Below are positions 7,618 through 56,807 of a stretch of 64,000 nucleotides of DNA, piece after piece. The position numbers were made by a program, and so were the translations under genes. The notes under the pieces were generated by a model. It saw only the letters and a program-made list of their open reading frames with translations. It did not search any database and had not been told where the DNA came from. Every line of letters begins with the position of its first letter. Position 1 is the first letter of the stretch. The DNA is from a virus (lineage: Duplodnaviria > Caudoviricetes): positions 32,001 to 96,000 of the IMG/VR virus record IMGVR_UViG_3300033069_000781; one strand, written 5' to 3'.

Positions 7618-8937
7618 ATGGCTAAGAAAGCTAAAACAGAGATAGAGACAAATTCAAGTTCTGAAGCTTCCTTTTTCTCCCTCGCCAATAATTCCACAGA
7701 GTCTACTACTGAATCTACTGTTCCACAAAAGCCCACATCTACACCAGCCCCCTTCTTCACTAAGCTCCTAGATGCTAATAGAAAGAAGCATGGATCTAAA
7801 ACATTGATGGTTGGGTCGGAACAGAGAGTAATTGGTTTAGAGCCCTATAGTATTGCATTACAGTACATAATGGACTTGGAGGTTGTACCCCTCCAAGCCA
7901 TTATTAACATTGCTGGCGAAGAGAAGACCTATAAGACATCTATTGGTCTAGAGTTCTGTAAGATGTTCTTAGATCTACAACCCGTGCAAGGTATAGCAGT
8001 AGTGAATAATACTGAAGGTAAATGGTCACCCAGTAAGTCTAGATCAATGCTGGGCCATCACAACGATGTACTACAGGTAATCCAGAACAAGTCAGTAGAG
8101 GAATGGCAGGCTTCCGCTACATCTAACCTTCTACTAATGCAGGAGATAGTTGATAAGAAGAAAGATGCTATAGCTAAGAAGGCTAAAACTTCTGAGTATA
8201 AGGACATGGTTATTCCACCAATGATTATCATGGTGGATTCATTGACTGGTTCTCAATCCGATAAGATCGTTGAGACCGTACAGACCGAGGGCTTCGGATC
8301 CAAGACCTTCCAGGACCGTGCCTTGATTAATCATCAATTCTTCTCAACCTGGGGTTCTAATCTAATCGGAATGCCAGTAACAATTGTTATCACCAATCAT
8401 TTAAAGATTAAACTAGATGGTCAGCCAGGTATTAAGCAATATACCACTAGTGGTGGATCGGGGCCCAGCTTTATGTGTTCCATGGAGATTAGGGTCAAGA
8501 GAATCGGTGAGATCGATAAGACTTACATAGAGGGCGCTAAGCTTCTATGGAAGATGCATCACAATAGTCTAGGTAGGGATAAGAGACAGATCGAAGTCCA
8601 CTATATGGAAGGCTATGATGCAGAGGATAACCAGAAGGCCTACTTTGATTGGGATTCCACTCTAATCATGTGTCTTCTGGAGCGTCTAGAGGAATCAGCT
8701 TATAAGGACAGAATACTAGGAGTCCTAGGGGAATTCAATGAGTATCCCAAGGCTGGCTTTGGTAAGGTCTATAGTTGCGGCAGATTGGGTATAGATAAGG
8801 ATAAGGCTATAGATGAGGGAGTGGGAGCCACTGAGTTGGGCCGCATGTTGCAGACCGATCCAGTCATCCGGGAAGAATTAAAGGCTGCACTAAGAATACA
8901 GAAGGCAACTAAATGGACGCCTGATATCGAGATGTAG
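7618..8937 (+). CDS. RecA/UvsX-like recombinase
   Basis: Walker A IAGEEKTYKTS, NTEG, Walker B IIMVDSL, ITNH, TTSGG...F...RV(K)R RecA signature order. Confidence 0.85.
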   Translation: MAKKAKTEIETNSSSEASFFSLANNSTESTTESTVPQKPTSTPAPFFTKLLDANRKKHGSKTLMVGSEQRVIGLEPYSIALQYIMDLEVVPLQAIINIAGEEKTYKTSIGLEFCKMFLDLQPVQGIAVVNNTEGKWSPSKSRSMLGHHNDVLQVIQNKSVEEWQASATSNLLLMQEIVDKKKDAIAKKAKTSEYKDMVIPPMIIMVDSLTGSQSDKIVETVQTEGFGSKTFQDRALINHQFFSTWGSNLIGMPVTIVITNHLKIKLDGQPGIKQYTTSGGSGPSFMCSMEIRVKRIGEIDKTYIEGAKLLWKMHHNSLGRDKRQIEVHYMEGYDAEDNQKAYFDWDSTLIMCLLERLEESAYKDRILGVLGEFNEYPKAGFGKVYSCGRLGIDKDKAIDEGVGATELGRMLQTDPVIREELKAALRIQKATKWTPDIEM

Positions 8938-20470: not shown

Positions 20471-20497
20471 AAGCTGCTCATATGAGCAGCTTATTTT
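20471..20497 (+). terminator. intrinsic terminator
   Basis: AAGCTGCTCATATGAGCAGCTT inverted repeat followed by ATTTT. Confidence 0.6.
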
Positions 20498-21025
20498 ATG
20501 GAAATAGATATAGAAATAGATACTAATAGACCACTCTATAGATTATGTACTGATGGTGGCTGTTTAGGGCCGAATAAAATCGGTGCCTGGGCTTTTGTCT
20601 TAACCGATCTGTCAACCAATACCAAACTTGAATTATGCCGTGGCTGTAATCAGACAACTAATAATAGGATGGAATTACTCGCCGTTATAAGAGGCCTTGA
20701 AGCTATAAACTGTGAAGCAGCTAATGTTGAGTTAATTAGTGATAGCCAATATGTAACAAAGGGTATAACGGAGTGGTTACCTACCTGGAAACGTAAGAAT
20801 TGGAGAAGGTCTGGGACAGGCCAGGTCTTGAATGTAGATTTATGGAAGACAATAGACTTCCTAACTAGAAAACATCAAGTCACTACTATATGGGTCAAGG
20901 GTCACAATGGTCACCCCGAGAATGAACTATGCGATAAGCTATGTACCGATAAAATCGAGGAATTCAAGTTAAGGAGTTTGTTTACAAATGGGTTATCTCA
21001 GCAGATTGAAAACAAGGTTAGCTAG
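20498..21025 (+). CDS. rnhA: ribonuclease HI
   Basis: TDGGCLG, TTNNRMELLA, SDSQYV, NVDLW, WVKGHNGHPENELCDKL. Confidence 0.96.
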   Translation: MEIDIEIDTNRPLYRLCTDGGCLGPNKIGAWAFVLTDLSTNTKLELCRGCNQTTNNRMELLAVIRGLEAINCEAANVELISDSQYVTKGITEWLPTWKRKNWRRSGTGQVLNVDLWKTIDFLTRKHQVTTIWVKGHNGHPENELCDKLCTDKIEEFKLRSLFTNGLSQQIENKVS

Positions 21026-21098
21026 CTACGATTCTTCAATTAGTTTTATGTTGTTGTTACTACTAACTGTACTATTCGCATTGACAATTAATCTATGA
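20988..21098 (+). CDS. 36-aa single-TM peptide, holin/pinholin candidate (not in track)
   Basis: AAGGAG at 20971; MGYLSRLKTRLASYDSSISFMLLLLLTVLFALTINL; stop overlaps the lysozyme start (ATGA). Confidence 0.45.
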   Translation: MGYLSRLKTRLASYDSSISFMLLLLLTVLFALTINL

Positions 21099-21598
21099 GT
21101 ATCAGAGATGATGGATATTTCGGTCTATGTATGTTTATGCTTATTATAGTATCGTTGAGCATACTCTTTAAGTCATGCTCACTTCACATATCAAGTAAAT
21201 CCATAAAAGATCAAACAGTTATTAGTCAGCGAGATAGTGACCTAAATAAACTGGAGCCTTTACTGGATGCGATTGAACATGTAGAGGGTTGGGACCGTGT
21301 AACTCAGTTAGGTATAAGGGGTGAAAGGGGGCCATATCAAATTACAAAGGATTATTGGATCGATAGTCGGATACCGGGGGATTTTGAAGATTGTGACATT
21401 AGGTCATACGCAAAAGAGGTTGTATTAGCCTATATGTATCGATACTGCCCAGAAGCTATCAGGAATAACGATTACGAAACAATAGCTAGAATTCATAATG
21501 GAGGACCCCTAGGGGCTACTAAGTTCTCAACTAAACAATATTGGTATAGAGTGTTCTTTTATATGGACAAGAAGGCAGAAGAAGGACTAACTAAATGA
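21095..21598 (+). CDS. invertebrate-type (destabilase-like) lysozyme with N-terminal membrane anchor
   Basis: AIEHVE, GPYQITKDYWIDS, AYMYRYC, ETIARIHNGGPLG, TKQYW; hydrophobic aa 8-25. Confidence 0.8.
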   Translation: MSIRDDGYFGLCMFMLIIVSLSILFKSCSLHISSKSIKDQTVISQRDSDLNKLEPLLDAIEHVEGWDRVTQLGIRGERGPYQITKDYWIDSRIPGDFEDCDIRSYAKEVVLAYMYRYCPEAIRNNDYETIARIHNGGPLGATKFSTKQYWYRVFFYMDKKAEEGLTK

Positions 21599-22170
21599 AT
21601 AATAATCCAACTGGAACTTTAAAAGAATTTATGGAACAGGCCATGATAACCGCAACTACCTCTCAACCAGATCCAATCGATACCGAGCTGCCAATTGTAG
21701 AGTTTCAGTATGATCCCGTTGCGATTCAGTTTGTAGCTGAGCTCGCTAAACGGCATACAAACCCGCCTATGGGAGATGCTGCCAAGCAGGCAATGCTGGT
21801 AGCTCTGGACCAGGTTATCTCGGAGCTAGATACAAGTAGTCCCGATTTCCCTACTCAACTCGCAGGAGTATTATGCTCTAAGCAGAAGATTAGGATCAGT
21901 GATGTCTACGCCAAGAAGTATACGGGTGGCAAGAAGATCGCAAACCCTGTTCTAGGTGAAGCCGATGTGGCGTGGCTTCGTGAAACCTTGGAGCGAGTCT
22001 TGGGACGAGAGGTCGCCCCTTCCTGGGAACTCATTGAGCCAGGTTATAAGGATATCAAAAAAGAAGAATCGGCAGATGAGTGGGATGACGAAGATGAATT
22101 AGGCGAAGCTGAGTGGGATGAAGATGATGATTTGGGTGAGGGGGATGACGATGAGGATTATGTCCCCTAA
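21595..22170 (+). CDS. hypothetical protein with acidic tail
   Basis: 191 aa; C-terminal DEWDDEDELGEAEWDEDDD. Confidence 0.75.
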   Translation: MNNNPTGTLKEFMEQAMITATTSQPDPIDTELPIVEFQYDPVAIQFVAELAKRHTNPPMGDAAKQAMLVALDQVISELDTSSPDFPTQLAGVLCSKQKIRISDVYAKKYTGGKKIANPVLGEADVAWLRETLERVLGREVAPSWELIEPGYKDIKKEESADEWDDEDELGEAEWDEDDDLGEGDDDEDYVP

Positions 22171-22175
22171 GTGAT

Positions 22176-23345
22176 ATGACTATAGATGAGTTGGTTATAG
22201 ATAAACCAATAGTAATAGCTGTAGAGGCTAAACCCAAACCGATATTCACCTTAACTGATGAGCAGGCCAAGGTAGTAGATACCCTAGTTGACTGGGCTTC
22301 AGATAAGAAACAGACCACAACAGAGAAATCAGTTGGCGGCTTCGCTGGTGTCGGTAAGACAATTACAATTAAAGCTATCATAGATAAGTTAGACCTAACT
22401 GATCTATCGATAGCGGTAGCCTCATTTACTGGTAAGGCCGTATCCGTTCTAAAACAGAAGGGTATCTCTAGAGCTCAAACCTTACACAGCCTACTCTATA
22501 ACTTCGATCCAGTCACAAAGGAGTTCAGATTAGTACCAGAACTTACCTGTGATGTTATATTTGTAGATGAGGCCTCGATGGTTAATAGGGCCCTCTATAA
22601 CGATCTATTAAGATTTAAGAAAAAGCTTATATGGGTTGGCGATATGGGTCAGTTGGAACCTATTGGGGATAACCCCAACTTAATGGCTAGGCCGGATCTT
22701 GTATTAACCAAGATCCATAGACAGGCTGCCCTATCCCCCATTATTCAATTCTCAAGGATCCTACGAGAGGGTCAGACCTATGGTTATGGGTGTATACCCC
22801 CTATATGTCCAGAGGGTGAGAAGCCCCAGCTAGAGATAGTTGGATATAACTACTATCCAAACTATATCTATAGTTGTGATCAAATCATATGCGCCTTCAA
22901 TAAAACTAGGCATGGTATTAATCGATTATTAAGAGAGCATAAAGGGTTCACTAACCAGCTCGAAGTTGGTGATAGAGTGATCTGCCTCAAGAACAACAAT
23001 AAGGTTGGAGTCTATAATGGACTGGTCTGTACAGTTGCGCGAATAGTAGATGATTTCGGCAAAACCTATATCTGTGACTTAATAGATGAGGTGGGTACCA
23101 AATATACAGATATCTGTATGTATAAGGCTCAGTTCGGCGAGAATAAGATTGATGATATGGGAGTAAGCTCCAAGAGTTCTATTACTTACTGGGATTACGG
23201 CTACTGTATCACATGTCATAAAGCTCAAGGATCGGAATGGGCAGAGGTAGTAGTGATCGAGGAGCAATCTACCTTATGGGATATGCGTAGATGGTCCTAT
23301 ACTGCGGCAACTAGGGCTAGTAAGAGATTGGTTTATTGTAGATGA
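22176..23345 (+). CDS. SF1B helicase (Dda/RecD-like)
   Basis: GFAGVGKT, VDEASMV, GDMGQLEP, IHRQA, TCHKAQGSEW, YTAATRA. Confidence 0.93.
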   Translation: MTIDELVIDKPIVIAVEAKPKPIFTLTDEQAKVVDTLVDWASDKKQTTTEKSVGGFAGVGKTITIKAIIDKLDLTDLSIAVASFTGKAVSVLKQKGISRAQTLHSLLYNFDPVTKEFRLVPELTCDVIFVDEASMVNRALYNDLLRFKKKLIWVGDMGQLEPIGDNPNLMARPDLVLTKIHRQAALSPIIQFSRILREGQTYGYGCIPPICPEGEKPQLEIVGYNYYPNYIYSCDQIICAFNKTRHGINRLLREHKGFTNQLEVGDRVICLKNNNKVGVYNGLVCTVARIVDDFGKTYICDLIDEVGTKYTDICMYKAQFGENKIDDMGVSSKSSITYWDYGYCITCHKAQGSEWAEVVVIEEQSTLWDMRRWSYTAATRASKRLVYCR

Positions 23346-23985: not shown

Positions 23986-24376
23986 TAAACAAGCAGCACT
24001 GGCAGTGCCCTATGATAATGAGATGGCTTTAGCTCAAATAATAAAACAGCTAGGCGCAATCCTTACTGAGTTACAGTTTGTGAGCCAACATATCATAGAG
24101 CAGATGAATAAGTCGCCTGCACCTATACCTGAGCCTAGTAAACCTCAAGTATTACCTAAAGAACCGTTTGATTGGTTTAAGGAAATAGAAAGGAGGCGTA
24201 AAGAAAAGGAACAGGAAGAGGAAGTATGGCCTTATCGCATAGGTGATCCATACCCACCCTATCCTAGATGGCCTACACCAGCTGATCCTTGGGTACCGAC
24301 TACCCCTGATACTTATCCCTACCCAGATAAAAAACAACCAATAATTACTTGCAATACTCCTAATCCATTGTCATAA
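23933..24376 (+). CDS. hypothetical protein, Lys-rich N-terminus and Pro-rich C-terminus
   Basis: Likely start MKLVKKKTKP at 23933. Confidence 0.6.
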   Translation: MKLVKKKTKPKKKQPKSNKQAALAVPYDNEMALAQIIKQLGAILTELQFVSQHIIEQMNKSPAPIPEPSKPQVLPKEPFDWFKEIERRRKEKEQEEEVWPYRIGDPYPPYPRWPTPADPWVPTTPDTYPYPDKKQPIITCNTPNPLS

Positions 24377-25818: not shown

Positions 25819-26281
25819 TCTAAAGATTAGAGATCACTTTAAAACAGTAGCACCGGATACTAGTGTCGATTGTGCAATATGTCCGGATGGTTCTGTACTA
25901 ATCGAGTTAAATCAAATCGATACTGGCCAGACTGATACGCTCCTGAGGACCTCATTCACTTTTGAGAAGGAGCATGCCAGGTATTTCACCTTTAACTTAG
26001 CCAAAGAGTTACATAAATCTACAAAGAGTCTAGATAGGGATTTTGACTCCACTATTCGCTATAATCCTAATACTAGAGCATTACAATCAATAAAAGATAG
26101 AAATGAGGTATGGGTAAAAGTTAAACCTATACTTATGGACTTCTATATTGCACGCAATTATATAAGCCTTTTTGAGGGCAGCTTTGAATTACTATTTAAA
26201 GCTTATATGAGATTTAACCCAAATCTATCAGAGCATACACTTCTATTGAGATCAATTTTAGCGTCTATAGTCTGTAATTAA
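25778..26281 (+). CDS. hypothetical protein
   Basis: 167-aa ORF. Confidence 0.65.
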   Translation: MDQVSSPTESPINSLKIRDHFKTVAPDTSVDCAICPDGSVLIELNQIDTGQTDTLLRTSFTFEKEHARYFTFNLAKELHKSTKSLDRDFDSTIRYNPNTRALQSIKDRNEVWVKVKPILMDFYIARNYISLFEGSFELLFKAYMRFNPNLSEHTLLLRSILASIVCN

Positions 26282-26307
26282 CAAAGCACGCACAAAGGAA
26301 ATCACAA

Positions 26308-27411
26308 ATGACAAAGTCAAAAGCGAATCAAGTTCGACCGATTCACCGTTCCGAGATCACTGTACTCACGGACACCTTCGCTAAGGTGTACCCACAGATC
26401 AAGCGAAATGGACTCTCGAAGAAAGCTGCCCTACCCATCTTCAATAAGCAGCTCAAGGCAGATCTAAATAGTGCCAGAGCTAACAGTACCAGCTATCAAT
26501 GGGAGGTACTCAATAAGCACAAAAAACTTAACTCACCTAATCAACTCGATACCCTATTCCGTGAATATCAGGCACGCCAAGATATTTCCAGCCCTGACTG
26601 GACATGGCCTATTCATGGTAACGGTAATCGATTACATCTTGAGCGCTACTTGGTTGAGAATAAGCAAACTATTTTGCATAACGCTATGACCCGATCGAGA
26701 GTAGCGGATAATATCGATCGAGAGCTTGGTATTCGGTACACCGATGGAATGATCCAGGATTGTGCCCGTGAGGTTGGAATTGTTTGGAGGAACGGTAAGG
26801 CTGTCGATAAGGCTACTACCTATGCTACCATTAAGCCTTACGAAGTTCCCGCTAAGGCCTCACCCAAGGCTGAATATGCCTGGCAGGTATCATTCGATAA
26901 GGATCTCTCTAAGGACCCCGTGATTACCCAGACTATGTCCGCAATGGAGCAGACTAATGCTATTAATGCAATGAAGTCCCAGGTAGCTAGCTATATCACC
27001 ACTATTGAGCAACTGGTCCGTGCAGTTGAGTCTATTCAGCTCCAGGTTACTCGTTTGAATCAAGTCAATTTTGCTGGTACCCAGCTCGTTGATTATCCAC
27101 ATGCACCAGTTACAGATCCCACCAATGTCGTAGTTCCATCCGAACTGCCCGTAGTAACTGCCCCTAACCCAGAGGCCACTAGTCCACTCTCAGCTGCTCT
27201 TAATAGATTCAAGTTCGACATCGAGACCTCGAAGCTAACCCCTATAGCTCCAGTAGGTCTAAAGGTCAATGAGACGCCCAGTACGAATAGAACTGAGGTT
27301 GCTGAACTAGCCCATGTAGGTATGCATACAGATCATGACAATACCCCTAATCCCCGAAGAGACTGGTGGGATTCTAATTATGCTAATGTTGGATCACAGG
27401 GCCCATTCTGA
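26308..27411 (+). CDS. hypothetical protein
   Basis: 367 aa, AAGGA RBS; basic N-half, coiled segment, Pro/Thr-rich tail. Confidence 0.75.
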   Translation: MTKSKANQVRPIHRSEITVLTDTFAKVYPQIKRNGLSKKAALPIFNKQLKADLNSARANSTSYQWEVLNKHKKLNSPNQLDTLFREYQARQDISSPDWTWPIHGNGNRLHLERYLVENKQTILHNAMTRSRVADNIDRELGIRYTDGMIQDCAREVGIVWRNGKAVDKATTYATIKPYEVPAKASPKAEYAWQVSFDKDLSKDPVITQTMSAMEQTNAINAMKSQVASYITTIEQLVRAVESIQLQVTRLNQVNFAGTQLVDYPHAPVTDPTNVVVPSELPVVTAPNPEATSPLSAALNRFKFDIETSKLTPIAPVGLKVNETPSTNRTEVAELAHVGMHTDHDNTPNPRRDWWDSNYANVGSQGPF

Positions 27412-27416
27412 ATTAA

Positions 27417-29453
27417 ATGAAGACAAAAACAAGTGTTAGTCCTAAGTCAGCACAGACTAGACTAAAAGAACTTAAGACCATGATCAAGAGTGCTGATGAG
27501 GCCTACTATCAGCAATCAGATCCGATCCTAACGGATCCGGAATATGATGCCTTGATTAGTGAGCTTAGAGCACTAGAGAAGGAGAATCCGGATCTAATCA
27601 CCCCGGATTCTCCTTCTCATAGAATAGGGGAGAAATTGACCGCTGGGTTCTCTCAGCATAAACATCTCTATCCAATGTTGTCTATTGATAACGTCTATAC
27701 CTATGAAGACCTAGATAAATGGTATAAAGACATAATCGAGCTAGTAGGTGTAGGTAATGATTATGTCATTGTTCAACCCAAGATTGATGGGATAGCGATA
27801 TCACTGACCTATAAGAATGGTAAGCTTATCAGAGGTACCACTAGGGGTGACGGTGAAGTAGGTGATGATGTCACCGCTAACTGTATGGCTGTTCTAGATA
27901 TTCCTCTAACTATCTCCTACAAAGAGGAGATAGAGGTTAGGGGTGAGTGCTATATCTCTATCTCTGACTTTGAGAGGATTAATATACGTGAGGAAGCTAA
28001 CCATAAGAATCCACGTAACCTAGTCAATGGGACCATGAAGAGCCATGATCCTATACAGGTGCGCAATAGAATGGTTCGGTTCATATGTCACAGTGTTGGA
28101 CATCTCGGAGTTAGTATGGAGTATGACACTCTAAGTTCAATACTACGTATGCTGGTTAAGAGTGGCATGATCATAGCGGCGTGGTCTAGGACCTCAGGAT
28201 TTCTAGAGTTCAAATCCCTAGTCGATGGCTATGTATCGGGTAATGAAAATAGAGATATTCCAGTAGATGGAGTAGTGGTTAAGTTAGATAGTATTGATGC
28301 CCAGACCCACCTGGGACATGGCTCTAAATACGTTAAATGGGCAATTGCTTATAAGCCCCGTGAATCCTACGCTGAAACCACCCTGGAATCAATAACCTGG
28401 ACTGTTGGTAAGAACGGTAAACTAACCCCAGTAGCTAACTTAACCCCTGTAGATCTCGACGGCACAACCATTACTCATGCCTCACTACATAATCATATGA
28501 TCATGTATGAGCTGCAAATTGAACCTGGATGTGTAGTTAGACTAGAGAAAGCGGGGGAAATAATTCCCCAGATAGTAGCTAGAGTAAACACTAGGCATAA
28601 AGATACTTCAATAGATTATTATGCGCCAATGGTATGCCCTATATGTAATAGTACATTAGAGCTAGTTGGCCCAAATCTCTTCTGTAGGAACTCGTCATGC
28701 CCAGGTCAGACCTCTTCAAGCCTTAAGCATTTCGTAAGTAAAACTGGATTAGACATCAAAGGTATAGGTGATGTATTAATCGAGAGAATAGGTGGGATAG
28801 TTATCTTACCTGAACATCTCTGGACCCACTACAATCAATATATACAAATGCTAGAGGGCCTAGGCAACTGGGGTCAGAGGAGTACAGATAAATTGTACGC
28901 TGGACTACAGGAGGCTAAGAGTTGTGGTCTAGAGAAGTTCCTGCGAGCCCTAGGTATCCCAAAGCTGGGTAAGACCCTATCCAAGGCTCTGGCTGCTAGG
29001 TATGACGATATCGATGATTTATGCCAAAACATAACAATAGACAAACTAAAGGAAATAGAACATATAGGAGATACCATTGCTGAACTGGTTTACCCAGTCC
29101 TATCGAGTCCTAGTTTTAAAGCTCGTGTTGATGTATTCAAATCTCAAGGATTTAATCTACGAAGCTTATCACGGCAAGCTCCCGAGGTAATAGATATGGC
29201 CAATAAAGCTAAACAATCAAAACTAACAGGAAAATCTATATGCGTGACCGGTTCCGTTGAAGGTTACACCCGTGCAGAGCTAGAGGCTAAACTGACCGAG
29301 CTAGGAGCCAGCTTTAATTCAGGAGTATCTAAGAGTACTGATATACTGGTCATAGGAGATGACCCCGGTAGCGCTAAGATCGAGAAGGCTAATAAGTATA
29401 ATATTCCCACTATAACTTCAGATGAATTACTTAAGCTATTCAGTTCCCCATAA
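27417..29453 (+). CDS. ligA: NAD-dependent DNA ligase
   Basis: YY...D.EYD, PMLSIDN, KIDG adenylation motif, TRGDGEVGDDVT, EVRGE, NPRN, DGVVVK, Zn finger, HhH, BRCT. Confidence 0.97.
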   Translation: MKTKTSVSPKSAQTRLKELKTMIKSADEAYYQQSDPILTDPEYDALISELRALEKENPDLITPDSPSHRIGEKLTAGFSQHKHLYPMLSIDNVYTYEDLDKWYKDIIELVGVGNDYVIVQPKIDGIAISLTYKNGKLIRGTTRGDGEVGDDVTANCMAVLDIPLTISYKEEIEVRGECYISISDFERINIREEANHKNPRNLVNGTMKSHDPIQVRNRMVRFICHSVGHLGVSMEYDTLSSILRMLVKSGMIIAAWSRTSGFLEFKSLVDGYVSGNENRDIPVDGVVVKLDSIDAQTHLGHGSKYVKWAIAYKPRESYAETTLESITWTVGKNGKLTPVANLTPVDLDGTTITHASLHNHMIMYELQIEPGCVVRLEKAGEIIPQIVARVNTRHKDTSIDYYAPMVCPICNSTLELVGPNLFCRNSSCPGQTSSSLKHFVSKTGLDIKGIGDVLIERIGGIVILPEHLWTHYNQYIQMLEGLGNWGQRSTDKLYAGLQEAKSCGLEKFLRALGIPKLGKTLSKALAARYDDIDDLCQNITIDKLKEIEHIGDTIAELVYPVLSSPSFKARVDVFKSQGFNLRSLSRQAPEVIDMANKAKQSKLTGKSICVTGSVEGYTRAELEAKLTELGASFNSGVSKSTDILVIGDDPGSAKIEKANKYNIPTITSDELLKLFSSP

Positions 29454-54450: not shown

Positions 54451-54942
54451 ATGGAACTGGAAGCTGAAACAACGGCAACTATTACCCCCCTTGAACCTAG
54501 TATTATTTTAGGGTTCGATACTAAACTTGGACTGCGTTCCTGTCATATAACAAAGAGGCCATGGGGTCTATTTGTAGAGCTCTTTGTTCCAGGGTCCACG
54601 ACTCCATTTCGTGTTCATGCCTTCAACCAGTTATATGATGTATATATCTGCTTAGTCCAGGACTGGGAAGCTAGTTGTGTTCATGTTATTGAACCCGAAA
54701 TTGAACCGATAGCTATACCAATTCATGACTGGCTCAGAACAAATGAGGCTCGTAGATTGGTGGATCAACCAGACATTACTATTGTAGATGCCTCCGTGGA
54801 TATCGAGGAAACAGTAACCCCTACCGATCCTCCGTATATCAGTGCCTCACTTCGGGACTTCGTACTAACAGCATTGGTGGTATTTTTGGGCGGTGCGCTA
54901 GCTGGGGTTGCGTCGGTATGGTTCAGGATGTTGTCTAATTAA
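54451..54942 (+). CDS. C-terminally anchored membrane protein
   Basis: AAGGAG RBS; TM FVLTALVVFLGGALAGVASVWF. Confidence 0.75.
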   Translation: MELEAETTATITPLEPSIILGFDTKLGLRSCHITKRPWGLFVELFVPGSTTPFRVHAFNQLYDVYICLVQDWEASCVHVIEPEIEPIAIPIHDWLRTNEARRLVDQPDITIVDASVDIEETVTPTDPPYISASLRDFVLTALVVFLGGALAGVASVWFRMLSN

Positions 54943-54952
54943 AGGAGTATAA

Positions 54953-55195
54953 ATGAGCCCGATAGAGATTGATGATTCGATGCGTTTTGTACTAGAGGCA
55001 TGTCTTAAGCCACCAAAGGAAAGAAAGGAGATGTTGGATAGGGCTAAGGATCAGTACGGCGAGATCATCTTCGCTAGAGCCCAGATGAGACTGACGCGTA
55101 AGAAGCTTATCGAAAATGGTTATTCACTGACCCCACTTGGTATGGAGACGATCACAACGATCAAAACAAATGAAGGAATCCCGGTATCAACCTGA
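54953..55195 (+). CDS. small winged-helix-like protein
   Basis: AAGGAG RBS; RLTRKKLIENGYSLTPLG wHTH-like ending. Confidence 0.6.
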   Translation: MSPIEIDDSMRFVLEACLKPPKERKEMLDRAKDQYGEIIFARAQMRLTRKKLIENGYSLTPLGMETITTIKTNEGIPVST

Positions 55196-55598
55196 TCCAA
55201 CCCGTGCCAAGCTAATGATTTACTGGAAGTGGTCATTGGCTAATTTGAAGTTCATAGGTATAGGGTTAATCATTGCGGACTGTTTCGCTTACCCCTACGT
55301 TGGTTTTGCACCAATGATTGTTGGGGCAATCCTAATCCTCTATGAGTTCCTTGTGGCACTTCCAAAACTACTGATTGAGAAGTTCTCAGTCAAAAAGGAG
55401 AAAGAGAGATCACAGAAAGTTCATCAAAAGCTCGAACTGTCTGAAGTAGTGATCTATGATGATGGTAGATTCGAAGGTAGAGTCTATATCCCTAAATCAA
55501 TGGAGATCCCGGATAAAATTGCAATCCAAGACGAAATGATTCAAGATGCCAGTGCCGTTAAGGTAGCTAAGTCATTCGATCCCGATGCTGAGTCCTAA
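55170..55598 (+). CDS. two-TM membrane protein
   Basis: FIGIGLIIADCFAYPYVGFAPMIVGAILILYEFLVAL. Confidence 0.7.
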   Translation: MKESRYQPDPTRAKLMIYWKWSLANLKFIGIGLIIADCFAYPYVGFAPMIVGAILILYEFLVALPKLLIEKFSVKKEKERSQKVHQKLELSEVVIYDDGRFEGRVYIPKSMEIPDKIAIQDEMIQDASAVKVAKSFDPDAES

Positions 55599-55614
55599 TA
55601 AAAGGAGTTTAGTA

Positions 55615-55713
55615 ATGTCTAGTGGAAAGCATGGAACGCTTTTCCGTATCGCCAGGATGGCCATTATTCTGTCAACTGTTGCTGTGATTCTGCATATCAT
55701 TGCGAAACCGTAA
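55615..55713 (+). CDS. 32-aa single-TM peptide (not in track)
   Basis: AAGGAG RBS; MSSGKHGTLFRIARMAIILSTVAVILHIIAKP. Confidence 0.6.
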   Translation: MSSGKHGTLFRIARMAIILSTVAVILHIIAKP

Positions 55714-55758
55714 TGAGCATAGTCCAATAAACCAATTAAATCAAGTAAAGGAAGTGGC

Positions 55759-56274
55759 ATGGATAGCGCAACTGGTTCTGGAATCAGTACTGATCAGACT
55801 CCTGCAATTAACCCTATTCCCAGAAGTGAAACTATCGCTGGGGCAATTGGGGAGAAGGCGGGAATCATGAAGTCTTTTTCGATGTTTGGTTTTATTCTGG
55901 TTCTTATCTTGTTCTGTCTCTACGGACTCTGCAAGCTCAGCTATGACCACGGAGTTCAAGCTGGTCAAGGGGCAGTCGATGCTTACCTCAAGACTGTCCA
56001 GTCCGTTGGAGTCAATAACGCTGGAGATAAGGGGCAGATCATCAAGTGCCTCTCACCCGTTGTTAGGTTATTTTCATCCCCAGCTGAACCCGCCGTGATC
56101 TACCAGGAAGAGCTTGTTCAGGGCCCTAACCCACGGAACTTCTTTATCGATGGTGCAAACCTCGATAACCAAGTCATCACAATCACCTATCGAAAAGGTC
56201 AAATCGTTCCCGAAGTGGAATACAAAGCAGCAGAAGTTGAAAAGGTTCGCCACTGGTATAAGCTCTGGCTGTAA
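55759..56274 (+). CDS. N-anchored membrane protein with Trp-rich C-terminus
   Basis: TM FSMFGFILVLILFCLYGLC; ends KVRHWYKLWL. Confidence 0.75.
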   Translation: MDSATGSGISTDQTPAINPIPRSETIAGAIGEKAGIMKSFSMFGFILVLILFCLYGLCKLSYDHGVQAGQGAVDAYLKTVQSVGVNNAGDKGQIIKCLSPVVRLFSSPAEPAVIYQEELVQGPNPRNFFIDGANLDNQVITITYRKGQIVPEVEYKAAEVEKVRHWYKLWL

Positions 56275-56354
56275 GAGTTTCGAGTAAAAATCAAAATAGT
56301 TCCAATAAGATCTGAGAATGTACTCAGATCATTTCAAGGTTTAAAGGAGTCTAT

Positions 56355-56807
56355 ATGAATCGTTTCTCGACCATGATCGTTGCCTCGCTTGTCGCCTCCA
56401 TGCTTATCGTCGCCTACGTTCTCTCTGCTGGTGGTATGGGTACCCCCACCTATCAGCCCTCGTCGGATACTGGGATCATGGCTGTCGATCCCGATACCAT
56501 GAAGATGGATACCTGGAAGAAGATGCTGAGTGATCCCGTGATTGCCTTCAAGCCGTCAGCTGGTACCACGCTGGTTGTTGGCAGGGTCTACAAGATCGAG
56601 AGTGATCTCAGCGGTCACTGGGGTTATCATGAAGCCCAAACCGGGATTGTCCAGACCTCCTCCGATGATTCCTGGGTTTTGATCAAGTCCTCGGCACTGA
56701 CTGATCGTGAGTTTGTGATCAAGAATCTTGAACTCGCTTCGGTCAAGGACATCGACAAGAGGGGTTGGTGGAGCCGTAACTTGGGTTGGGTAGCTTTCTG
56801 GAACTGA
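56355..56807 (+). CDS. exported/membrane protein with Trp-rich C-terminus
   Basis: AAGGAG; signal/TM MIVASLVASMLIVAYVLSA; ends KRGWWSRNLGWVAFWN. Confidence 0.75.
   Translation: MNRFSTMIVASLVASMLIVAYVLSAGGMGTPTYQPSSDTGIMAVDPDTMKMDTWKKMLSDPVIAFKPSAGTTLVVGRVYKIESDLSGHWGYHEAQTGIVQTSSDDSWVLIKSSALTDREFVIKNLELASVKDIDKRGWWSRNLGWVAFWN

Follow-up and report, generated by a model that had tools for sequence, protein, structure and literature searches.

Invertebrate-type (i-type) lysozymes are commonly treated as animal enzymes. In leech destabilase, Glu34 pairs with Asp46 as the second acid, and the role of His112 has been discussed (PMC10126035). Destabilase also acts as an isopeptidase, a second activity in which the conserved His takes part, with Ser49 and Ser51 proposed to act with His112, and the protein contains 14 Cys residues (PMC10126035). 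Among phage lysis proteins, signal-anchor-release (SAR) domains show weak hydrophobicity and consist mostly of Gly, Ala, Ser and Thr, and the phage Mu releasin gp25 is a 99-residue, N-out/C-in protein with an anionic cytoplasmic domain (PMC9239132). The phage-lysin resource PhaLP 2.0 lists the destabilase domain only as miscellaneous (PMC13237592), and our literature search found no characterized phage endolysin of the destabilase type. Here, we describe two overlapping genes in a 64,000-nucleotide (nt) stretch of DNA, hereafter the window, that belongs to the 119-kb IMG/VR record of a large uncultured phage (IMGVR_UViG_3300033069_000781, positions 32,001 to 96,000) with a completeness of 47% by CheckV estimate. 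The first, at window positions 21095-21598 on the + strand, encodes a 167-residue protein with an N-terminal membrane segment that we assign to the i-type (destabilase) family. The second is a putative micro-protein gene of 36 codons at 20988-21098, also on the + strand.

A sequence-only reading of this DNA had proposed that the two open reading frames (ORFs) form a lysis cassette composed of a SAR-like endolysin and a micro-holin. Both ORFs lie on the + strand at the coordinates that it gave; it did not mention that the smaller one overlaps the RNase H ORF upstream. The i-type lysozyme is a protein of a kind already known; what is new here is its variant active site and the coupled peptide. 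A lysis cassette is a plausible interpretation of the pair.

The lysozyme and its active site

The lysozyme contains the motifs GPYQITKDYWID (residues 79-90) and ARIHNGGP (residues 131-138), together with an HVE triplet that includes Glu64, so the motifs, the catalytic-position Glu and the N-terminal hydrophobic segment noted in the sequence-only reading are all present. The protein scored 28.8 bits against PF05497 (Destabilase; cut-off 26.2 bits), and 29.3 bits in a six-frame search of the record. Searches of PDB sequences with phmmer returned leech destabilase (8bbu, 7e-12) and three clam i-type lysozymes (5e-9 to 5e-7). A profile built from the protein and 13 metagenomic relatives matched 8bbu over the whole domain with an E value of 2.2e-25, and the catalytic Glu and Asp columns were in register. 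The hidden Markov model for SLT (PF01464) did not match the protein at E<=0.1, and a six-frame search of the record with this model was likewise negative at E<=1.

We then compared protein folds. An AlphaFold2 (AF2) model of the lysozyme had a mean predicted local distance difference test score (pLDDT) of 82, with most of the catalytic domain at 92-97. The model contains a helix at residues 6-29, which corresponds to the hydrophobic N-terminal segment (residues 7-29, 21113-21181), followed by poorly modelled residues 30-36 and a catalytic domain that begins around residue 50. Based on the model and the alignment to destabilase, the lysozyme-like fold spans residues 53-162 (21251-21580). The top six Foldseek matches in the PDB were all i-type lysozymes, and GH23 transglycosylases appeared from E 0.5. 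Using VIA-align, the model superimposed on destabilase with Z 16.5 and a root-mean-square deviation of 2.3 A over 110 residues (36% identity, model residues 49-160), compared with Z 14.4-14.5 for the clam i-type enzymes and Z 8-11.4 for GH23 enzymes. The best structural match is thus destabilase rather than a GH23/SLT transglycosylase. Together with the PF05497 score and the profile match, this result makes the ORF almost certainly an i-type family enzyme, as had been proposed from its motifs. The catalytic domain is under purifying selection, with a ratio of nonsynonymous to synonymous differences per site (pN/pS) of 0.10-0.26.

The active site retains one of the two catalytic acids. Glu64 (codon 21284-21286), which is equivalent to destabilase Glu34 in the profile-PDB alignment and to Glu18 of the Tapes japonica lysozyme (TjL), is invariant in 161 of 161 family members. 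Gly79, Gln82, His134 and Gly137 are likewise invariant across these sequences, and Tyr87, Asp90, Tyr113 and the His134-Pro138 stretch are invariant or nearly so. His134 (codon 21494-21496) lies within ARIHNGGP and is equivalent to destabilase His112. The column of the second catalytic acid (destabilase Asp46, TjL Asp30) holds Asp in 151 of the 161 members and Ile solely in the window protein (Ile74, codon 21314-21316) and its two close relatives, which make up the window clade. The motif-based reading of the gene had therefore identified the retained Glu correctly while missing the absence of the second acid.

We compared 280 distinct active-site loops from family representatives and loci. A Glu-first loop that is one residue shorter (G-E-x-G) was present in 9 of the 13 loops without the Asp, as opposed to 1 of the 267 loops with it (Fisher p 3e-13). 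In the window protein, this residue is Glu77 (codon 21323-21325), a candidate for the relocated second acid. Loops that combine G-E-x-G with loss of the Asp are found in several lineages (P0013, P0032, P0046, P0125, P0148, P0150, L149 and the window clade). On a FastTree phylogeny built without the loop columns, the G-E-x-G state needs seven changes, a rough count given that the tree is poorly resolved. Glu77 occupies the position of destabilase Ser49, a residue that lies in the cleft according to the structure paper (PMC10126035). These comparisons suggest that the second acid has probably moved from position 74 to Glu77. Compensation is a better explanation than decay because loss of the Asp recurs together with a Glu in the loop, and decay is also made unlikely by the purifying selection on the catalytic domain. 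Alternatively, the protein could work with a single Glu. GH23 enzymes, which have the same fold, function with one catalytic Glu. Either way, the absent Asp and the co-varying Glu constitute a natural experiment on catalysis.

Of the residues proposed for isopeptidase activity, the His is kept as His134, and the positions of Ser49 and Ser51 are taken by Glu77, Arg78 and the deletion in the shortened loop. The lysozyme has two Cys residues in the domain (C100 and C118) and one after the helix (C28), with no disulfide network. A dense network is typical of the animal branch of the i-type family and not of its bacterial and phage branch.

The 36-codon gene upstream of the lysozyme

The micro-ORF (20988-21098) has the features attributed to it in the sequence-only reading: an AAGGAG sequence, a basic N-terminus, one hydrophobic helix and an ATGA overlap with the lysozyme start codon. 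The Shine-Dalgarno-like AAGGAG (20971-20976) is located 11 nt 5' of the ATG, inside the RNase H coding sequence, and is unchanged in three relatives. The basic residues are R6, K8 and R10. Residues 1-14 form a cationic amphipathic segment with a hydrophobic moment of 0.39-0.46, and the hydrophobic helix, which starts near residue 17, extends to the very C-terminus (last residues T-I-N-L), leaving no charged C-terminal tail. The micro-ORF stop codon overlaps the lysozyme start, and the lysozyme gene has no Shine-Dalgarno sequence of its own.

The length of 36 codons, the start context and the ATGA overlap are kept in the related phages L001 and L002/L004, whose lysozymes are 90% and 65-66% identical to the window protein, respectively. 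Nei-Gojobori counts across these relatives in all three frames showed that the micro-ORF frame is the constrained one (pS 0.47-0.62, pN 0.05-0.11, pN/pS 0.10-0.18). In the other two frames, pN exceeded pS in all but one comparison. Synonymous changes accounted for 12 of 16, 16 of 25 and 14 of 22 changes in the micro-ORF frame, compared with an expectation of about 24% (binomial P 2e-5 to 9e-5), and the constraint also holds in the 23 codons that are free of overlap. Within the overlap (20987-21025), the RNase H frame is approximately neutral (pN ~ pS), and it is again the micro-ORF frame that is constrained. Conservation of the ORF in related phages, which the sequence-only reading had named as a check, is thus seen, with purifying selection in its own frame. 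Judged by this pattern of substitution, the micro-ORF is very probably a real micro-protein gene. Frame-specific pN/pS over a few relatives is a useful means of validating hidden micro-ORFs. We also considered a frameshift fusion between RNase H and the peptide and rejected it: a TAA codon 18 nt before the micro-ORF ATG closes the frame, and the sequence shows no obvious slippery site.

No Pfam or PHROG family matched the micro-protein at E<=0.1, though a 36-residue query gives such a search little power. No relatives were found outside the clade: an exact look-up returned only the L002 copy, as a one-member cluster, and an Atlas feature search returned nothing. Beyond the clade, the nearest relatives of the lysozyme (P0003 in L168, and L088) are not accompanied by the 36-codon ORF.

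Nucleotide identity between the window and L001 drops to 59-77% at 21000-21250, a region that spans the 3' part of the micro-ORF and the membrane helix of the lysozyme. Identity on the flanks is 85-90% in the RNase H gene and 97-99% in the catalytic domain. Because pS is about 1.0 in the helix region and 0.13 in the catalytic domain, the alignment suggests block-wise exchange or divergence of the two membrane segments. Further islands of low identity to L001 are found at 24050-24370, 25820-26300 and 27000-27480.

A proposed mechanism and its alternatives

We infer that the lysozyme is an exported, endolysin-type enzyme in which Glu77 substitutes for the missing Asp, and that it is functionally linked to the peptide. 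In this model, the lysozyme is a peptidoglycan glycosidase that would be carried into the cytoplasmic membrane by its hydrophobic N-terminal helix. The helix most likely holds the enzyme there, with a periplasmic catalytic domain after a linker of about 25 residues, and the protein would be the muralytic (endolysin-type) enzyme of the phage. Glu64 would serve as the general acid, and Glu77 in the shortened loop would probably take over the role of the Asp replaced by Ile74. The micro-protein is predicted to be a single-pass, tail-anchored protein with its cationic amphipathic N-terminus on the cytoplasmic face and its C-terminal helix in the membrane. The lysozyme is probably translated by coupling to the peptide, because it lacks a ribosome-binding site of its own and starts within the ATGA overlap, so that peptide and enzyme would reach the membrane together. 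There, the peptide may modulate the anchoring, activity or timing of the enzyme. Taken as a whole, the reading of a membrane-held i-type muralytic enzyme with a coupled micro-protein acting at the membrane stands at about even chances. We lean slightly towards a role in lysis for the enzyme; that the peptide is part of lysis control is a tentative proposal. The anchored enzyme and the conserved, coupled membrane peptide make a clean pair for testing in E. coli.

The lysozyme is the only recognizable wall hydrolase in the 119-kb record. A six-frame search at E<=1 detected no Phage_lysozyme, SLT, Amidase_2, Amidase_3, GH25, Peptidase_M15_4, M23 or NlpC/P60 domain in this sequence, estimated to be 47% complete. 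Holins typically have a hydrophilic, highly charged C-terminal domain. The micro-protein is a small protein with one transmembrane helix encoded beside an endolysin candidate, as a holin would be, and it has neither a charged C-terminal domain nor a match to a known holin family. The term "micro-holin" is therefore not supported for a peptide that ends inside its hydrophobic helix and is known only from a three-member clade.

Several observations weigh against the proposed mechanism. With the record at an estimated 47% completeness, the part that is missing may contain a canonical lysis cassette, and other small single- or multi-pass membrane ORFs within the record could encode the holin. The destabilase gene has no consistent small membrane neighbor elsewhere, as judged from the 44 of 80 viral loci in which the gene was located. 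The micro-protein has neither relatives outside the clade nor a charged C-terminal tail. The replacement of the canonical Asp by Ile74 may leave the enzyme with altered or weak activity. The charges around the N-terminal helix are ambiguous (-1 in the N-tail of the window protein and L001; K26, K35 and K38 after the helix), and the positive-inside rule yields no clear prediction of a periplasmic domain. Finally, the pair sits amid genes for DNA metabolism (ThyX, RNase H, a Dda-like helicase and an NAD-dependent ligase) rather than in a late or structural module or next to other lysis genes.

A terminator-like hairpin with a 9-bp stem and a T-rich tail (20471-20492, + strand), found by consensus scan only, lies directly 5' of the RNase H gene and likely marks the 5' end of the transcription unit to which the peptide-lysozyme pair belongs. 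The RNase H gene (20498-21025, + strand; PF00075 2.7e-37, phrog_531 1.4e-47) shares its last 38 nt with the micro-ORF in a different frame, and the overlapped C-terminal tail is beyond the Pfam domain. Downstream of the pair, the ATG of a 191-codon ORF (21595-22170, + strand) overlaps the lysozyme stop codon, again as ATGA, and a Dda-like helicase gene (22176-23345) follows. Four or five genes at the locus are chained by overlaps. The 191-residue product has no Pfam, PHROG or PDB relative and a very acidic C-terminal tail, in which the final ~30 residues are nearly all Asp or Glu. Its position before the helicase gene invites the guess that it is a single-stranded DNA-binding (SSB)-like protein or a helicase partner.

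We next considered the possibility that the lysozyme is an exported, membrane-tethered enzyme that is made along with the replication genes in early or mid infection and remodels the wall, for example by local loosening of the sacculus or for the exclusion of other phages, with the lysis cassette in the unsequenced half of the genome and a peptide of unrelated function. The location of the pair behind a terminator-like hairpin, within an operon of DNA-metabolism genes, is consistent with this explanation, as are the incompleteness of the record and its other clusters of membrane proteins. Homologs in many other phages are likewise encoded among early or DNA-metabolism genes without membrane neighbors, and bacteria carry chromosomal copies outside prophages. 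However, no other wall-hydrolase family was detected in the 119 kb, and the tight ATGA coupling between peptide and enzyme is kept in all three relatives. Moreover, T7 gp3.5 and T4 e are precedents for endolysin genes in DNA-metabolism regions. On balance, we consider a remodelling enzyme possible and rather unlikely.

Two further alternatives depend on how the N-terminal segment is read. The segment is present, as the sequence-only reading had reported, and its description there as SAR-like does not fit. It comprises 18-22 uncharged residues, with 24% Gly, Ala, Ser or Thr in all three clade members and the rest Leu, Ile, Phe, Met or Val, so it is strongly hydrophobic and resembles a stable signal-anchor or else a signal peptide rather than a weakly hydrophobic, releasable helix. 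SAR endolysins have one to three basic residues in a short cytoplasmic N-tail; each clade member has one basic residue there, with a net charge of -1 in the window protein and L001 and +1 in L002. An uncharged N-terminal stretch of at least 10 residues is found in 151 of the 161 family members, and most viral homologs have short Sec-type signal peptides, some with a lipobox-like L-x-[AS]-C. By analogy with these relatives, the domain is most likely exported to the outer side of the cytoplasmic membrane. Directly after the helix, every clade member has Cys28-Ser29, and a Cys is also found there in the sister sequences P0003 and P0031. The segment may act as a signal-anchor, as a signal peptide or as a non-canonical lipoprotein signal.

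If the signal were cleaved, either by signal peptidase I after Ser-Cys-Ser or as a lipoprotein at Cys28, the mature periplasmic lysozyme would be either soluble or lipid-anchored and would be restrained by the membrane potential, like signal-peptide endolysins, and the peptide would be a depolarizing minimal pinholin or lysis peptide. The classical signal peptides of most family members, the lipobox-like sequences of some, the conserved Cys and the small residues at -3 and -1 in the window protein and L001 all fit this explanation. Nevertheless, we find it doubtful: signal peptides seldom have a hydrophobic core as long as 18-22 residues, two of the three sequences have an N-region without net positive charge, and the residues that precede Cys28 (F-K-S, F-Q-T and L-R-D) depart from the canonical lipobox. 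A domain that faces the cytoplasm (N-out, C-in) and stays tethered until a large-hole holin encoded elsewhere gives it access to the wall would agree with the N-tail charge of -1 in the window protein and L001, the three Lys residues after the helix and the holin-like two-helix ORFs elsewhere in the record. However, the N-tail has a net charge of +1 in L002, the family is overwhelmingly exported through N-terminal signals, and an enzyme that is tethered would not readily get through holin lesions. We therefore regard this orientation as very improbable. It is equally hard to believe that glycosidase activity was lost with the Asp that 151 of the 161 members have, leaving a wall-binding or, in view of the His-dependent isopeptidase activity of destabilase (PMC10126035), an isopeptidase-type protein, since purifying selection maintains Glu64 together with the rest of the invariant cleft residues, the Ser49 and Ser51 positions are not conserved in the shorter loop, the recurrent loop Glu points to compensation, and GH23 enzymes of the same fold act with one Glu.

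A membrane-held enzyme with a coupled peptide remains our preferred reading, and its boldest form is a long shot: that the peptide and a permanently anchored i-type lysozyme are a new two-part lysis device, with the enzyme belonging to a recurrent "moved-acid" sub-type. If this were true, the device would belong to phages of Planctomycetota-like hosts. No lysis regulator of a double-stranded DNA (dsDNA) phage smaller than the peptide would be known, and the peptide could act as a hole-former, an inhibitor or a release factor through helix-helix contact with the anchor. The Glu in place of the Asp might also shift the chemistry from hydrolase to transglycosylase.

Membrane-protein ORFs occur elsewhere in the record and beside other family members. 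Five predicted membrane proteins of 163, 153, 42, 171 and 150 residues are encoded in a row at 54451-56807, and small ORFs with one or two helices lie beyond the window (G000 96494-96694, 101260-101567 and 115927-116181). These are alternative holin or spanin candidates. The neighbors of the destabilase gene in the 44 viral loci are heterogeneous, and a small membrane ORF adjoins it in few of them (L090, L094/95, L104 and L144/146). We therefore rejected a general rule that destabilase genes adjoin small membrane ORFs. In one unrelated IMG/VR phage (L144 3799-3900; L146 4351-4452), a 33-residue single-helix ORF begins 6 nt past the stop codon of a destabilase-like gene, and it represents a second, non-homologous micro membrane ORF beside this enzyme family.

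Distribution and comparison with known systems

At a threshold of E<=1e-3 the family profile retrieved 6151 cluster representatives, and at E<=1e-10 it retrieved 3635; relatives occur on at least 459 IMG/VR contigs. The ESM Atlas clusters are about 90% viral, and BFVD contains an entry named "Destabilase [uncultured Caudovirales phage]" (UniProt A0A6J5P067). Species-representative genomes contained 138 relatives, and the best 80 of the 138 were mostly in metagenome-assembled genomes (MAGs) of Planctomycetota. PF05497 matched in 7 of 301 sampled Planctomycetota genomes, a sporadic occurrence, and in 0 of 14 control genomes. Precomputed gene calls placed bacterial and phage copies in a T7-like phage, a prophage-like neighborhood with an integrase and a plain chromosomal site. 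In the T7-like contig (L166), the destabilase-like gene (8001-8402) follows the terminase in a group of small acidic genes of early type and has no gene for a membrane protein close by, a placement that recalls T7 gp3.5.

The window protein had no tblastn match in 50,697 GenBank phages. A typical family member had a single match in the same set, to a hypothetical protein of Microcystis phage Mel-JY01 (PP395634.1, 150923-151270). Two metagenome scans found no further members of the window clade, and a viral scan with the clade alignment returned distant members only. The family thus comprises thousands of sequence clusters, mostly from phages and from bacteria of the Planctomycetes-Verrucomicrobia-Chlamydiae (PVC) group, and is almost absent from GenBank phages. 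It amounts to a large muralytic class with no experimental test in the papers that we searched.

In a FastTree phylogeny of the family, the window clade forms a long branch within a cluster of 28 rows (support 91), which include 15 Planctomycetota, 4 Verrucomicrobiota and 4 viral rows. Because bacterial homologs are mostly from Planctomycetota and because this cluster is dominated by Planctomycetota and Verrucomicrobiota, the tree suggests a PVC or planctomycete host for the phage. The presence of peptidoglycan in Planctomycetota is already accepted. The locus therefore has little bearing on that question, contrary to what the sequence-only reading had anticipated, and the host itself is suggested only by the distribution of homologs.

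The closest described relatives are the i-type lysozymes: leech destabilase (8BBU/8BBW) and the enzymes of Meretrix lusoria (3AB6/4PJ2) and Tapes japonica (2DQA). They have the fold in common with the phage protein (Z 16.5/14.5, 30-36% identity over 110 residues), as well as the catalytic Glu and the G-x-YQI, Y-W-x-D and ARIHNGGP motifs. The phage protein differs from the animal enzymes in having Ile for Asp, a loop that is one residue shorter and carries Glu77, and no conservation at the Ser49 and Ser51 positions. Compared with destabilase, it has 2 Cys in the domain instead of 14 and an N-terminal membrane helix, and it is phage-encoded. The uncharacterized bacterial and phage destabilase-like proteins (A0A6J5P067, ESM Atlas clusters with a viral share of 91% and those in Planctomycetota MAGs) are similar in family, size, export signal and low Cys content. 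Typically, however, the Asp is present in them (G-D-x-G) and their signal peptides are short and cleavable, and the upstream 36-codon ORF is absent from these relatives outside the three-member clade. GH23 transglycosylases and goose-type lysozymes (Slt70, MltC/E/F and Cj0843) have the same overall lysozyme-like fold (Z 10-11), and yet the structural match is weaker, with 11-17% identity and no Pfam SLT match.

Among lysis systems, the SAR endolysins and pinholins (R21/S21-68 of phage 21, P1 Lyz) and Mu gp22/gp25 resemble the predicted arrangement in combining an exported muralytic enzyme that has an N-terminal membrane helix with a small single-pass neighbor that could control it. In contrast to SAR endolysins, the helix described here is strongly hydrophobic, the catalytic family is different, and there is no sequence relation. 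The micro-protein, at 36 residues with a predicted N-in/C-out orientation and a cationic cytoplasmic end, is opposite to Mu gp25 in topology and charge, and it has no Pfam match to the Mu-type releasin family (DUF2730). The single-gene lysis peptides of single-stranded RNA phages and other very small membrane peptides of phages are about 35 residues long, have a single hydrophobic helix and act alone in tiny genomes. The micro-protein is similar to these peptides in size and helix, and differs in that a large dsDNA phage encodes it and that it is coupled to a muralytic enzyme.

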